This document shows, in pieces, positions 12,001 to 21,000 of a stretch of 50,733 bases of DNA. Every line of letters starts with the position of its first letter. Position 1 is the first letter of the stretch. Source of the stretch: a virus (lineage: Duplodnaviria > Heunggongvirae > Uroviricota > Caudoviricetes); the IMG/VR virus record IMGVR_UViG_2778261237_000025; one strand, written 5' to 3'. Made by a program: the position numbers.

Positions 12001-15000
12001 CGAGAAAAAGAGAGCGGAAAGCGGTAAAAACGCCGGTCAGGAATGGCTGGCGGTGGTTGGTTATTACCCGAAATTAAGCCAGCTCGTTTCCGGCCTGATG
12101 CATCACGATATTCTGACCGGAAGCGCAAAGTCTTTTGCTGATTTAAACGCGCAGGTTGAGCAACTCAGCAAGCGTTGCTCAGAGGCTTTTGGCTCATATG
12201 GCCGTTAAAGCCTCCGGGCGTTTTGTCCCTCCGTCAGCATTTGCTGCAGGCACCGGTAAGGCGTTTACCGGTGCTTATGCATGGAACGCGCCACGCGAGG
12301 CCGTCGGGCGCGAAAGACCCCTTACACGTGACGAGATGCGTCAGGTGCAAGGTGTTTTATCCACGATTAACCGCCTGCCTTACTTTTTGCGCTCGCTGTT
12401 TACTTCACGCTATGACCACATCCGGCGCAATAAAAGCCCGGTGCACGGGTTTTATTTCCTCACATCCACTTTTCAGCGTCGTTTATGGCCGCGCATTGAG
12501 CGTGTGAATCAGCGCCATGAAATGAACACCGACGCGTCGTTACTGTTTCTGGCAGAGCGTGACCACTATGCGCGCCTGCCGGGAATGAATGACAAGGAGC
12601 TGAAAAAGTTTGCTGCCCGTATCTCATCGCAGCTTTTCATGATGTATGGGGAACTCAGTGATGCCTGGGTGGATGCGCATGGCGAAAAAGAATCGCTGTT
12701 TACGGATGAGGCGCAGGCTCACCTCTATGGTCATGTTGCTGGCGCTGCACGTGCTTTCAATATTTCCCCTCTCTACTGGAAAATATACCGTAAAGGGCAG
12801 ATGACCACGAGGCAGGCATATTCTGCCATTGCCCGTCTGTTTAACGATGAGTGGTGGACTCATCAGCTTAAAGGCCAGCGTATGCGCTGGCATGAAGCGT
12901 TACTGATAGCTGTCGGGGAGGTCAATAAAGACCGTTCTCCTTATGCCAGTAAACACGCCATTCGTGATGTGCGTGCGCGCCGCCAGGCAAATCTGGAATT
13001 TCTTAAATCGTGTGACCTTGAAAACAGGGAAACCGGCGAGCGCATCGACCTTATCAGTAAGGTGATGGGCAGTATTTCTAATCCTGAAATTCGCCGGATG
13101 GAGCTGATGAACACCATTGCCGGTATTGAGCGTTACGCCGCCGCAGAGGGTGATGTGGGGATGTTTATCACGCTGACCGCGCCGTCAAAGTATCACCCGA
13201 CACGTCAGGTCAGAAAAGGCGAAAGTAAAACCGTTCAGCTTAATCACGGCTGGAACGATGAGGCATTTAATCCAAAGGATGCGCAGCGTTATCTCTGCCG
13301 CATCTGGAGCCTGATGCGCACGGCATTCAAGGATAATGATTTACAGGTCTACGGTTTGCGTGTCGTCGAGCCACACCACGACGGAACGCCGCACTGGCAT
13401 ATGATGCTTTTTTGTAATCCACGCCAGCGTAACCAGATTATCGAAATCATGCGTCGCTACGCGCTCAAAGAGGATGGAGACGAAAGAGGAGCTGCGCGAA
13501 ACCGTTTTCAGGCAAAACACCTTAACCGGGGCGGTGCTGCGGGATATATCGCGAAATACATTTCAAAAAACATCGACGGCTATGCACTGGATGGTCAGCT
13601 CGATAACGATACCGGTAAGCCGCTTAAAGATACTGCCGCGGCTGTTACCGCATGGGCGTCAACGTGGCGCATTCCGCAATTTAAAACGGTTGGACTGCCG
13701 ACAATGGGGGCTTACCGTGAACTACGCAAATTGCCTCGCGGCGTCAGTATTGCTGATGAGTTTGACGAACGCGTCGAGGCTGCTCGCGCTGCCGCAGACA
13801 GTGGTGATTTTGCGTTGTATATCAGCGCGCAGGGTGGGGCAAATGTCCCGCGCGATTGTCAGACTGTCAGGGTCGCCCGTAGCCCGTCGGATGACGTTAA
13901 CGAGTACGAGGAAGAAGTCGAGAGAGTGGTCGGCATTTACGCGCCGCATCTCGGCGCGCGTCATATTCATATCACCAGAACGACGGACTGGCGCATTGTG
14001 CCGAAAGTTCCGGTCGTTGAGCCTTTGACTTTAAAAAGCGGCATCGCCGCGCCTCGGAGTCCTGTCAATAACTGTGGAAAACTCACCGGTGGTGATACTT
14101 CGTTACCGGCTCCCACACCGACTGAGCATGCTGCAGCGGTGTTAAATTTAATAGATGAAGGGATTCTAAGTTGGACCGAGCCAGGCATTATGAAGGTACT
14201 TAGAGACTTATTGAGTAATGAACTGAAATGCAGTAATCGTTCACAGCAGAGCTTTACCCCTTTCAATGGTCGAAGCTACTTTCCTGCCCCATCCGCCCGG
14301 TTGACAAGGCAGGAGAGAAAGACTATCCCGAAAATTAAGGTTCTTCTTGCACAAAGTGACATTCAGGCTAGTTATTGGGAGCTTGAAGCTCTCGCTCGCG
14401 GAGCTGTTTTGGATTTTGGGCATAAGCGTTTTAAATTTGATAACGATATCGACTTTTTTGACAGACAGCGTGAGTGGTAGTTGAAAAAAACGGTCAAACG
14501 GGGTAACAATATGTTATTGTTGAGGAATTGTTTGTTATAGTTTAATTTTTATACACGGCAGAAAAGCATATGAGCATGGTTGAATGGATAAGCCACGAGA
14601 AAAAAGATAGCCTGATACTATTTGTACATGGATTAAATGGTGGTTTGGAAACATGGAACTTTAATAAAGAAACTTCATTTCCAAAACTATTAGCAGAAGA
14701 TGAAGACATTGGCAATGTATTTGATATTGCATGTTTCAATTATTTCACCAAATTTACACAAACGTATGCTAAAACGTCAGGATTATGGGCTCGTATTTTC
14801 TCTAAGAAAAATAAGTTAGAGAGAAATTTACCAACTGATGAAATAGCTGAGTTATTGTATACTGAGATTAGGGTAACGCTAAGTGATTACTCTCGAATTA
14901 TAATAATCGCCCATAGTATGGGGGGGGTAATATCAAAAAATCTAATTCTAAAAAAAGTTGAGCATGAGGAACAATCTAATATAATTGGATTCATTTCGTT

Positions 15001-18000: not shown

Positions 18001-21000
18001 GGAAAAATATTCAAAAGAAACTCTTGCATTCGAGGATGACCTTGAGGGAATGTCAGATCCGATGAAGTATCAAAATATTTATGAACAACTATTGAATACA
18101 GTTCAAAAAGCAGAAAGAAAAAATGTTCCGTGCCAGATTATATTAGTTGATAATGATTTGCCTAATTCGTTTTCTACTGGTGAACTTTCGAATATTATCG
18201 CTCATTATAGCTCGGTTGGTGAGGACGGTTTGCCTTTAGGTTTAATTGATGACCTTTAATACTATACATGCATTTTTTTGAATTAGATTGCATGTGGATA
18301 ATGAGTCTATTTAGTGAAGGGAGGGATTTGTGAGACGAGACTTTCGATAAAAATGCAACCGCATTAAAATCGCCACATGAAGCGGGCGGGCGAGGCGGGG
18401 AAAGCACTGCGCGCTGGCGGTGGTGCTGATTTTATTTTTTCAGCGTCTGAGCGCGTCGTGATGGCGCTTAGTCTGCCCGTTGAGGCGTTGGTGTGTCTGC
18501 GGGGTGTTTTGTGCGGTGGTGAGCGTGTGAGGGCGTGATGACGGGGTGTAAAAAAGCCGCCCGCAGGCGGCGATGTTCAGCCGTTGTCAGTGTCCAGTGA
18601 GTAGTTTTTAAAGCGGATGACCTCCTGACCGAGCCAGCCGTTTATCTCGCGGATCCTGTCCTGTAGCGGGATAAGCTCATTGCGGACAAAGACCTTTGCC
18701 ACTTTCTCAATATCACCCAGCGACCCGACGTTCTCCGGCTTGCCGCCCATCAACTGAAAGGGGATGCGGTGCGCGTCCAGCAGGTCAGCGGCGCTGGCTT
18801 TTTTGATATTAAAAAAATCGTCCTTCGTTGCCACTTCACTGAGCGGGATAATTTTAATGCCGTCGGCTTTCCCCTGCGGGGCATAGAGAAACAGATTTTT
18901 AAAGTTGTTGCGGCCTTTCGACTTGACCATGTTTTCGCGAAGCATTTCGATATCGTTGCGATCCTGCACGGCATCGGTGACGTACATGATATATCCGGCA
19001 TGAGCGCCGTTTTCGTAATACTTGCGGCGGAACAGCGTGGCCGACTCATTCAGCCAGGCAGAATTAAGGGCGCTGAGATATTCCGGCAGGCCGTACAGCT
19101 CCTGATTAATATCCGGCTCCAGCAGGTGAAACACGGAGCCGGGCGCGAAGGCTGTCGGCTCGTTGAAGGACGGCACCCACCAGTAAACATCCTCCTCCAC
19201 GCCACGGCGGGTATATTTTGCCGGTGAGGTTTCCAGTCTGATGACCTTACCGGTGGTGCTGTAACGCTTTTCCAGAAACGCATTACCGAACACCAGAAAA
19301 TCCAGCACAAAGCGGCTGAAATCCTGCTGGGAAAGCCACGGGTGCGGAATAAACGTTGAAGCCAGAATATTACGTTTGACGTAAATCGGTGAGCTGTGAT
19401 GTACGGCAGCACGCAGGCTTTTTGCCAGACCGGTAAAGCTGACCGGTGGCTCATACCATCTGCCGTTACTGATGCACTCGACGTAATCCAGAATGTCACG
19501 GCGGTCGAGTACCGGCACCGGTTCACCAAAGGTGAATGCCTCCATTTTCGGGGCGCTGGCGGTCATTTTTTTTGCCGCAGGTTGCGGTGTTTTCCCTTTT
19601 TTCTTGCTCATCAGTAAAACTCCAGAATGGTGGATGTCAGCGGGGTGCTGATACCGGCGGTGAGTGGCTCATTTAACAGGGCGTGCATGGTCGCCCAGGC
19701 GAGGTCGGCGTGGCTGGCTTCCTCGCTGCGGCTGGCCTCATAGGTGGCGCTGCGTCCGCTGCTGGTCATGGTCTTGCGGATAGCCATAAACGAGCTGGTG
19801 ATGTCGGTGGCGCTGACGTCATATTCCAGACAGCCACGGCGAATAACGTCTTTTGCCTTGAGCACCATTGCGGTTTTCATTTCCGGCGTGTAGCGGATAT
19901 CGCGTGCGGCGGGATAGAACGAGCGAACGAGCAGGAACACGCCGACACCGAGGCCGGTGGCATCAATTCCGATGTATTCGACGTTGTATTTTTCGGTGAG
20001 TTTGCGGATGGATTCAGCCTGGGTGGCAAAGTCCATGCCTTTCCACTGGTGACGCTCAAGTATTCTGAATTTGCCACCGGCCACCACCGGCGGTGCCAGC
20101 ACCACGCATCCGGCACTGTCGCCACGGTGTGACGGGTCGTAACCAATCCAGACCGGGCGGGAGCCGAACGGATTCGCGGCAAACGGCGCATAGTCTTCCC
20201 ATTCTTCCAGCGTGTCGACCATGCAGCGTTGCAGCTCCTCGAACGGGAACACCGACGCCTTGTCGTCAACAAATTCACACATGAACAGGTTTTTAAAATC
20301 GTCGGCGCTGTTTTCGCGTTTAAGCTGCTCAATGTCGAACAGCGTGCAGCCACCTTTCAGGGCGTCCTCAATGGTGACAATCTGCCGCCACTGACCGTCC
20401 GCACAGAGAAGCCCACCGGCAAGAGCGTTATGACTGACGTCGATTTCCACGCGTTCGGCGGCGCTGGCGCGTCCCCGGTTGAACAGTTCACCCGACCAGA
20501 ACGGGTAGGCGTCGTGCGCCAGCGTGGACGGGGTGGAGAAATAGGTCGAGCGCAGGTGACTCTGTGAGGCCATACCTGATGCCACCTTACGCAGTACCTG
20601 AAAATTCGGTATCCAGAAAATCTCGTCGACGTACAGGTCGCCGTTATGGCTCTGCGCGGTGTTGGAGTTGGTGCCGAGAAAAATCAGTTTTGCGCTGTTA
20701 TTGCCCAGGACAATCGGGTCACCGGTCAGGTCAACGTCAACCAGCCGGGCAAAGGCGATGATGTATTCGCGGAACACATACGCCTGCGTTTTACTGGCCG
20801 ACAGAAAAATCTGGTTATGACCGGTTTTCAGGGCGCGCAGCAGCGCCTCGCGGGAAAAATAAAACGTCGCGCCAATCTGGCGGGATTTCAGGATATCGCG
20901 GATGCGGTGCTCAAGCCCGGCGCGATACCAGTGCAACTGATATTCGAAAGACTGCTCAAAGAAAATCTGCTCCAGCTTTTCGATAGCCTCGTCACTGAAA

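Follow-up and report, generated by a model that had tools for sequence, protein, structure and literature searches.

A lipase-type Lamassu operon in the gpA-cos hotspot of a P2-like prophage of Escherichia coli O157:H7

Introduction

Which genes have taken the place of tin and old in a P2-like prophage, and what would they do for its host? This question is raised by a stretch of 50,733 nucleotides (nt) from a virus of the Caudoviricetes (IMG/VR virus record IMGVR_UViG_2778261237_000025), which was analysed as a whole and is referred to below as the window. Three co-oriented and overlapping open reading frames (ORFs) on the plus strand make up a block of low guanine-plus-cytosine (GC) content at 14570-18259. 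A first-pass annotation of this DNA had read them as one operon encoding a hydrolase effector, a small protein and an SMC-like ATPase, had proposed a Lamassu-like system with an ABC-3C-type system as the alternative, and had left open whether the combination was already described. The three genes, lmuA, lmuC and lmuB, almost certainly constitute a complete type II ('short') Lamassu, or ABC-3C, system of the lipase-effector subtype. The mechanism proposed below, taken in full as stated, has somewhat better than even chances of being right. The joint statement of identity and full mechanism is held to be probable, a grade that blends near-certainty about the former with more guarded confidence in the latter.

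The locus is already known: its family, its lipase subtype, its hotspot and the exact locus are found in public annotation and in the literature, which settles the question of whether the combination had been described. RefSeq names the identical proteins 'ABC-three component system protein', 'ABC-three component system middle component 4' and 'AAA family ATPase' or 'SMC family protein'. Table S5 of Rousset et al. (2022; PMC9122126) lists the LmuA of the window (accession WP_000063136) as an occupant of the P2 hotspot, described as 'DUF676/PGAP1 + hypothetical + hypothetical', and the 'Lipase' effector class has been defined in short Lamassu (Haudiquet et al., PNAS 2025, PMC12663957). In the window, a complete-looking P2-like prophage of a major pathogen lineage carries a lipase-type Lamassu that can serve as a clean example, intact and strongly conserved.

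Identity and architecture of the operon

The names type II Lamassu and ABC-3C denote one and the same group of systems, and the Lamassu structural literature uses CTD1-12 for LmuA and MC1-8 for LmuC. ABC-3C is therefore rejected as a rival family separate from Lamassu, and the alternative offered by the first-pass annotation falls away as a synonym. Its Lamassu proposal is borne out by PADLOC profiles for all three proteins, with matches that span nearly the whole of query and model: LmuA (PDLC03851, 3.5e-108, residues 3-406), LmuC (PDLC03869, 1.5e-52, residues 3-169) and LmuB (PDLC03862, 1.5e-235, residues 2-656). Two Pfam families point the same way. LmuA carries CTD8 ('C-terminal domain 8 of ABC-3C systems') at residues 265-389 (15362-15736; 1.7e-35, 122.5 bits vs a cut-off of 27.6), and LmuC matches MC4 ('ABC-3C middle component 4'; 5e-27, 95.3 bits vs a cut-off of 28.1). 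The locus thus has the traits of type II Lamassu, with LmuB-, LmuC- and LmuA-type proteins encoded by adjacent, overlapping genes whose order is conserved across hosts. It also has those of the lipase subtype, namely an alpha/beta-hydrolase LmuA with a Ser-Asp-His triad and a short LmuB (~600-660 amino acids, aa) with a single CxxC motif.

The ORFs lie where the first-pass annotation had placed them (Table 1), and their arrangement as one operon is confirmed by overlaps of 14 nt between lmuA and lmuC and of 4 nt (ATGA) between lmuC and lmuB. Shine-Dalgarno-like ribosome-binding sites precede lmuC (GAGG) and lmuB (AAGGAG). The low-GC block is real, its GC content being 33.2% rather than the ~30% first given, vs ~50% (early region) and 57% (late region); in sliding windows the GC fraction is 0.31-0.36 across 14500-18250 and >0.52 on either side. 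The ratio of nonsynonymous to synonymous substitution rates (dN/dS) for lmuA, lmuC and lmuB, from comparisons with the corresponding alleles in E. coli B and Citrobacter, is 0.06-0.21. Such purifying selection implies that the three genes are real and working, and not chance ORFs in AT-rich DNA.

Table 1. Coordinates of the Lamassu operon and its flanking features in the window
Feature	Position	Strand	Description
P2 gpA-type replication endonuclease gene, left flank	12198-14480	+	phrog_91 'nicking at origin of replication', E=0; RefSeq 'replication endonuclease'
Cargo module swapped relative to P2	14162-18360		BLASTN vs NC_001895; GC trough spans the same interval
Spacer	14481-14569	+	89 nt, AT-rich, 5' of lmuA; own promoter of the operon presumed here
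lmuA	14570-15793	+	407 aa; effector, N-terminal alpha/beta-hydrolase and C-terminal CTD8
lmuC	15780-16292	+	170 aa; middle component, MC4 family, winged-helix core
lmuB	16289-18259	+	656 aa (655 aa from second ATG at 16292); short SMC/Rad50-like ATPase
P2 cos cohesive-end sequence	18389-18407	+	exact 19/19 match to NC_001895 1-19, annotated cosL
P2 gpQ portal gene, right flank	18577-19611	-	phrog_68 portal, 1.7e-176; RefSeq 'phage portal protein'

Other identities were tried and rejected. P2 Old/Tin has no BLASTN match within 14162-18360, and the sole OLD-like or Gabija signal is a match to GajA confined to the P-loop (6e-4). An SMC/Rad50/SbcC repair ATPase is contradicted by NCBIfam bit scores far under the family cut-offs (25.8 vs 729 for SMC, 22.7 vs 1000 for Rad50, 13.3 vs 408 for RecN) and by the neighbouring genes, which encode LmuA and LmuC and not SbcD or ScpA. 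As for Wadjet (JetABCD), only weak coiled-coil matches to JetC were obtained (6e-4 and 0.039), and the other genes have no match to JetA, JetB or JetD.

The LmuA effector

LmuA consists of a lipase-like alpha/beta-hydrolase domain (aa 1-~255) followed by the CTD8 domain, in keeping with the earlier description of a serine hydrolase with a candidate catalytic triad and an extra C-terminal domain. The triad is formed by Ser116 (14915-14917), Asp201 (15170-15172) and His226 (15245-15247). The nucleophile elbow reads AHSMGG (A114-H115-S116) and not GHSMGG, as had been stated. The three triad residues, together with H20-G21 and H148, are invariant in 50 LmuA homologs with 39-92% identity to the protein of the window. 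In Pfam, the hydrolase part (residues 10-208) matches DUF676 (4e-9), PGAP1 (3.6e-7) and also Abhydrolase_1; DUF676, PGAP1 and LCAT score above their cut-offs. A family profile searched against PDB sequences retrieved a putative lipase (6.9e-7) and BlEst2 (5.6e-5), followed by weaker, non-significant matches to lysosomal phospholipase A2 (LPLA2), PGAP1 (the glycosylphosphatidylinositol, GPI, inositol-deacylase) and LCAT.

The AlphaFold2 model agrees with the expectation of a hydrolase fold with a Ser-Asp-His triad: the core is confidently predicted, with a predicted local distance difference test (pLDDT) score of ~90 in the strands and the nucleophile elbow. The top Foldseek matches are serine hydrolases, monoacylglycerol lipases and thioesterases (E ~1e-7). 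The fold neighbours, at ~10-15% identity, include type II thioesterases, carboxylesterases and a fluorophosphonate-binding serine hydrolase.

LmuC and LmuB

LmuC is also predicted with confidence (pLDDT 82.9). In Foldseek its highest global template modelling (TM) score, 0.49, is to chain D of 9uxh, a match that is not significant (E=0.067). The entry is described as 'type II Lamassu, LmuACB with DNA', and its chain D has the size of LmuC; taken alone, this likeness between a model and a solved structure is only suggestive.

LmuB has the N-terminal Walker A and the coiled coil that the first-pass annotation had assigned to the third gene. Walker A is G33-x4-G38-K39-S40 (16385-16408), with K39 as its lysine, and the Q-loop glutamine is Q166. 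A single CxxC, C337-P-V-C340 (17297-17308), forms the zinc hook at the midpoint of the protein, and homologs keep it as C-P-x-C. The signature motif S527-G-G lies at 17867-17875. The C-terminal Walker B is present in a deviant form: it follows hhhhD-T, with D560-T561 (17966-17971), and not D-E. Walker A, Q166, the CxxC hook, S527-G-G and D560-T561 are all invariant in 40 LmuB homologs. Asp-Gln is the Walker B variant described for LmuB in the literature, and the solved LmuB 9hqu has D-Q at this position in the profile alignment. Asp-Thr occurs as well in a viral LmuB homolog of 35% identity (L018).

Profile searches place LmuB among SMC/Rad50/LmuB ATPases, in line with the first reading of the gene. 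A profile built from LmuB homologs matches PDB chain 9hqu_A at 2.1e-12 over 572 aligned positions and Rad50 at 6.7e-5, and also 9uxl_A and 9ny5_D. These three chains carry the name 'DUF3732 domain-containing protein', and 9ny5 is the apo complex of Vibrio cholerae LmuABC (PMC12663957). Such homolog-built profiles were needed for matches, as single-sequence phmmer searches of LmuB and LmuA against PDB sequences gave nothing useful. The general databases contain little else: Pfam detects only an SMC_N-type P-loop, below the family cut-off, and NCBIfam a sub-threshold coiled-coil and P-loop likeness to archaeal SMC-related protein (ASRP), SMC, Rad50, RecF and RecN. LmuB has in common with Rad50-Mre11/SbcCD a split ABC ATPase head, an antiparallel coiled coil and a zinc hook of the CxxC type, many database copies of LmuB are named 'exonuclease SbcC', and Lamassu has been proposed to derive from SbcCD. 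LmuB differs from SbcCD in its short coiled coil and in its partners, which are LmuC and a hydrolase effector instead of Mre11/SbcD.

Prophage setting

The window is 100% identical to chromosomes of E. coli O157:H7 (e.g. TW14359, EC4115 and SS52), in which the complete-looking P2-like prophage sits between yegR and yegQ. Its integrase gene lies at ~8619 and ogr at ~40370. The operon lies between gene A and cos, in the tin/old position of P2, as first proposed: it is flanked by the gpA gene on the left and by cos on the right, and the portal and large terminase genes follow downstream. The cos sequence is present once in the window, with 0 matches expected by chance; with it the hotspot ends on the right, 130 nt past the lmuB stop codon. 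The earlier statement that this position is a hotspot for anti-phage cargo agrees with the literature, where the gpA-gpQ interval is a P2 hotspot of anti-phage defence (Rousset et al., 2022, PMC9122126).

Alignment to P2 (NC_001895) by BLASTN shows 96.6% identity over 11164-14161, none over 14162-18360, and a resumption at 18361, 28 nt before cos. In P2 itself, orf91, tin and old occupy the gene A-cos interval; in the window the cargo module takes the place of these three genes and of the 3' end of gene A. The P2 genes old and tin share with the Lamassu operon both this slot and the role of non-essential lysogenic-conversion genes that exclude other phages, but they have no sequence relation to it. 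The two cargoes also differ in orientation: the Lamassu operon is co-directional with gene A, whereas old and tin (NC_001895 30684-33380) are transcribed the opposite way, toward gene A, starting at a promoter close to cos.

On its left, the module begins inside gene A, ~105 nt downstream of the aligned P2 ori nick site, rather than in the intergenic spacer. The final ~107 codons of gpA (14162-14480) consist of non-P2 sequence in which the GC fraction falls (0.38-0.46). Judged by this boundary, the C-terminal part of gpA appears to travel with the cargo.

Distribution and relatives

The full operon is present in 96 of 5,426 complete E. coli genomes, mostly in the O157:H7 lineage (100% identical) and in E. 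coli B derivatives (97%). A Citrobacter freundii P2-like prophage has the same trio, lmuA (DUF676 and CTD8), MC4 and ATPase genes, at the same gpA/portal site. In IMG/VR, five viral contigs are near-identical, and seven others at 32-35% identity have the same gene order. No copy of the operon and no detectable LmuA homolog was found by megablast and tblastn in 50,697 isolate phage genomes, and the system seems to be restricted to prophages from which no free phage has been isolated. A Klebsiella conjugative element shows lmuA alone, near ArdC, as its contig ends just after that gene.

A Pseudomonas aeruginosa locus (L009-L011, 1-9747) encodes a LmuA of 43% identity together with MC4 and LmuB. 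The trio, whose gene order is that of the window, adjoins genes for an OLD-TOPRIM ATPase and a UvrD helicase (Gabija-like), for Fic and for NERD/zinc-ribbon proteins. This is a defence-island setting of the same subtype outside prophages.

Among characterized systems, V. cholerae DdmABC (Lamassu Vc-Cap4) and Salmonella enterica LmuACB have the same three-component architecture, with LmuB homologous at the profile level, and a sequestration and release logic common to all three would be expected. Their effector is a Cap4/PD-(D/E)xK nuclease with CTD7, accompanied by MC3, whereas the window encodes a serine hydrolase with CTD8, accompanied by MC4. Moreover, the zinc hook kept by LmuB of the window has been lost in the Vc-Cap4 clade (PMC12663957).

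Lamassu Ec-Lipase, an E. coli system of the short clade with a zinc hook, has been validated against lambda-vir, and its defence needs the Walker A lysine of LmuB (K42A) and the catalytic histidine of LmuA (H215A) (PMC12663957). It shares with the operon of the window a lipase LmuA, LmuC, a CxxC LmuB of comparable length and the Ser-Asp-His triad. The equivalent residues are H226 and K39 in the window, and the Ec-Lipase numbering is absent from all 49 LmuA and 39 LmuB homologs aligned.

Closer still is the operon at the P2 hotspot of E. coli REL606, tested as pFR106 'Hydrolase + SMC' from its native promoter, with the upstream spacer included, against eight phages (Rousset et al., 2022, PMC9122126). 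It is a true ortholog, with the same hotspot and the same three genes (LmuA 97.3% and LmuB 97.4% identical to the window). The two differ in their prophages, that of REL606 being degraded, with a truncated portal gene, and that of the window complete-looking. They differ also in lmuC. In REL606 (NC_012967; L002 2880-3394; ~15927-15930 of the window) a 2-bp TG insertion after codon 50 splits lmuC into ORFs of 50 and 121 aa, while the gene is intact (170 aa) in the O157:H7 window and in another B strain, AS19.

Proposed mechanism

Lamassu has been extended to hydrolase, protease, Sir2 and other effectors; neither the LmuB ATPase nor the effector nor LmuC is dispensable for defence, which works by abortive infection, and members of the family occupy the prophage hotspots of Rousset et al. 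(Millman et al., preprint). Lamassu senses DNA ends and replication origins (PMC12663957). In a preprint on Salmonella LmuACB, two LmuB and LmuC sequester LmuA, and binding of DNA ends releases LmuA, which then oligomerises. The same preprint predicts that lipase LmuAs with CTD8 or CTD9 oligomerise, with the mechanism of non-nuclease activation 'to be established'.

On this basis, the operon would serve the O157:H7 P2-like prophage as lysogenic-conversion cargo, lodged in its gpA-cos hotspot. Two LmuB molecules with LmuC would hold one LmuA inactive, sequestered via its C-terminal domain, until LmuB and LmuC meet abnormal invader DNA in the form of DNA ends or replication-origin intermediates. 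ATP-dependent engagement of the LmuB heads would then free LmuA, which would self-associate via CTD8 as its hydrolase turns active. With less certainty, the Ser116-Asp201-His226 enzyme might attack membrane lipid and so kill or arrest the infected cell. Such abortive infection, occurring before a rival phage completes its cycle, would shield the population of lysogens and, with it, the prophage. The present analysis itself shows which family the proteins belong to, that their motifs are intact, how the operon is built, that its genes are under purifying selection and that it lies in the hotspot; the sequestration and release steps are carried over from structural work on nuclease Lamassus.

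Several observations weigh against this account. At the level of the parts, the C-terminal domain of LmuA, through which sequestration and self-association would act, is helical, poorly defined and of low pLDDT in the AlphaFold2 monomer model; the low values are compatible with, and no evidence for, a domain that folds against its partners. ATP turnover may differ between an LmuB with Asp-Thr at Walker B and one with Asp-Gln, to judge from the motif. The validated Ec-Lipase is a relative and not the allele of the window, as its residue numbering argues, and no published experiment on the exact O157:H7 allele was found. The remaining difficulties concern the substrate, the expression and the REL606 result, and each of them bears on a rival explanation.

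That the enzyme attacks a membrane lipid is unproven for any Lamassu lipase, and thioesterases and carboxylesterases are among the fold matches of LmuA. A working Lamassu whose LmuA acts on another substrate, for example an acyl-thioester, a lipoprotein or a cell-wall ester, would fit this mixture, in which a fluorophosphonate-binding serine hydrolase and monoacylglycerol lipases also appear; it would fit equally with the lack of an assigned substrate across Lamassu lipases and with a non-nuclease activation by oligomerisation that is still 'to be established'. The relatives of LmuA at the level of sequence are, however, lipid enzymes (DUF676, PGAP1 and LCAT, and a putative lipase), the weaker, non-significant profile matches are to phospholipase A2 and the GPI inositol-deacylase, and the published name of the subtype is 'Lipase'. 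A substrate other than membrane lipid is judged unlikely. The main targets of the system might also be other than unrelated lytic phages. Plasmids as well as phages are targets of V. cholerae DdmABC, plasmid-dependent toxicity served to pre-select some Lamassu candidates, and the Klebsiella homolog lies on a conjugative element beside ArdC, all of which would suit a Lamassu aimed mainly at plasmids or at competing P2-like or P4-like elements, with the exclusion of rival replicons as the benefit to the prophage. Against this stands the protection that the related Ec-Lipase affords against lambda-vir; the two roles are in any case compatible and are not separated by sequence, and a system directed mainly at such elements is considered improbable.

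The operon might, finally, be intact and yet give no measurable protection in its native state, owing to poor expression or a very narrow trigger, and so be near-neutral cargo of the O157:H7 clone. The search for a promoter speaks in favour of this explanation: no convincing one was found in the 89-nt spacer upstream of lmuA, which yielded only a weak TTGAAA-18-AACAAT match, and a promoter and terminator scan of the region gave no signal above controls (13 promoter-like sites vs 16.6 expected from shuffles). The operon is, moreover, co-directional with the early operon, which is repressed in lysogens, whereas old and tin have their own cos-proximal promoter, and complete identity across O157:H7 reflects clonality and not necessarily selection. 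The only ortholog found to have been tested, REL606 pFR106, is listed among the 'additional tested systems' of Table S2B and was not validated (Rousset et al., 2022, PMC9122126), even with its upstream spacer. This negative result, however, says little about the intact operon, because the 2-bp insertion leaves LmuC only 50 aa long and the Lamassu systems tested lose their defence when lmuC is deleted; the frameshift is a likely explanation of the published outcome. The dN/dS values across O157, E. coli B and Citrobacter, furthermore, indicate continued selection on the three proteins. Silent cargo is thus regarded as distinctly unlikely, and active anti-phage defence by a lipase-type Lamassu remains the preferred reading.

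Implications for P2-like phages and for the lipase subtype

If this reading is true, a sensor of DNA ends or replication intermediates is encoded 130 nt from cos, in a phage that is nicked by gpA and packaged from cos ends, which would imply that P2-like phages tolerate their own system. A combined proposal follows, in which the intact O157:H7 lipase-Lamassu is active, the REL606 result stems from the lmuC frameshift, and P2-like phages evade or switch off their own Lamassu; as a whole it is tentative and rather doubtful. Should it hold, the locus would offer a route to self-tolerance or to an anti-Lamassu mechanism in P2-like phages, and likewise to how CTD8 oligomerisation activates a lipase effector alongside an LmuB with an Asp-Thr Walker B. 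This Walker B and the winged-helix MC4 LmuC are clade-specific features relevant to the activation of non-nuclease effectors. The questions of lipase activation, of the Asp-Thr Walker B and of P2 tolerance near cos concern the whole subtype and not this locus in particular.

Other features of the prophage

Outside the Lamassu region, 27-nt imperfect inverted repeats (31131-31157 and 32988-33014, 81% complementary) flank a segment of ~1.9 kb that carries oppositely oriented tail-fibre-assembly and gp53-like genes, and a recombinase-family gene (33115-33708) adjoins it. From this arrangement, the interval 31131-33708 looks like an invertible tail-fibre host-range switch of the prophage.

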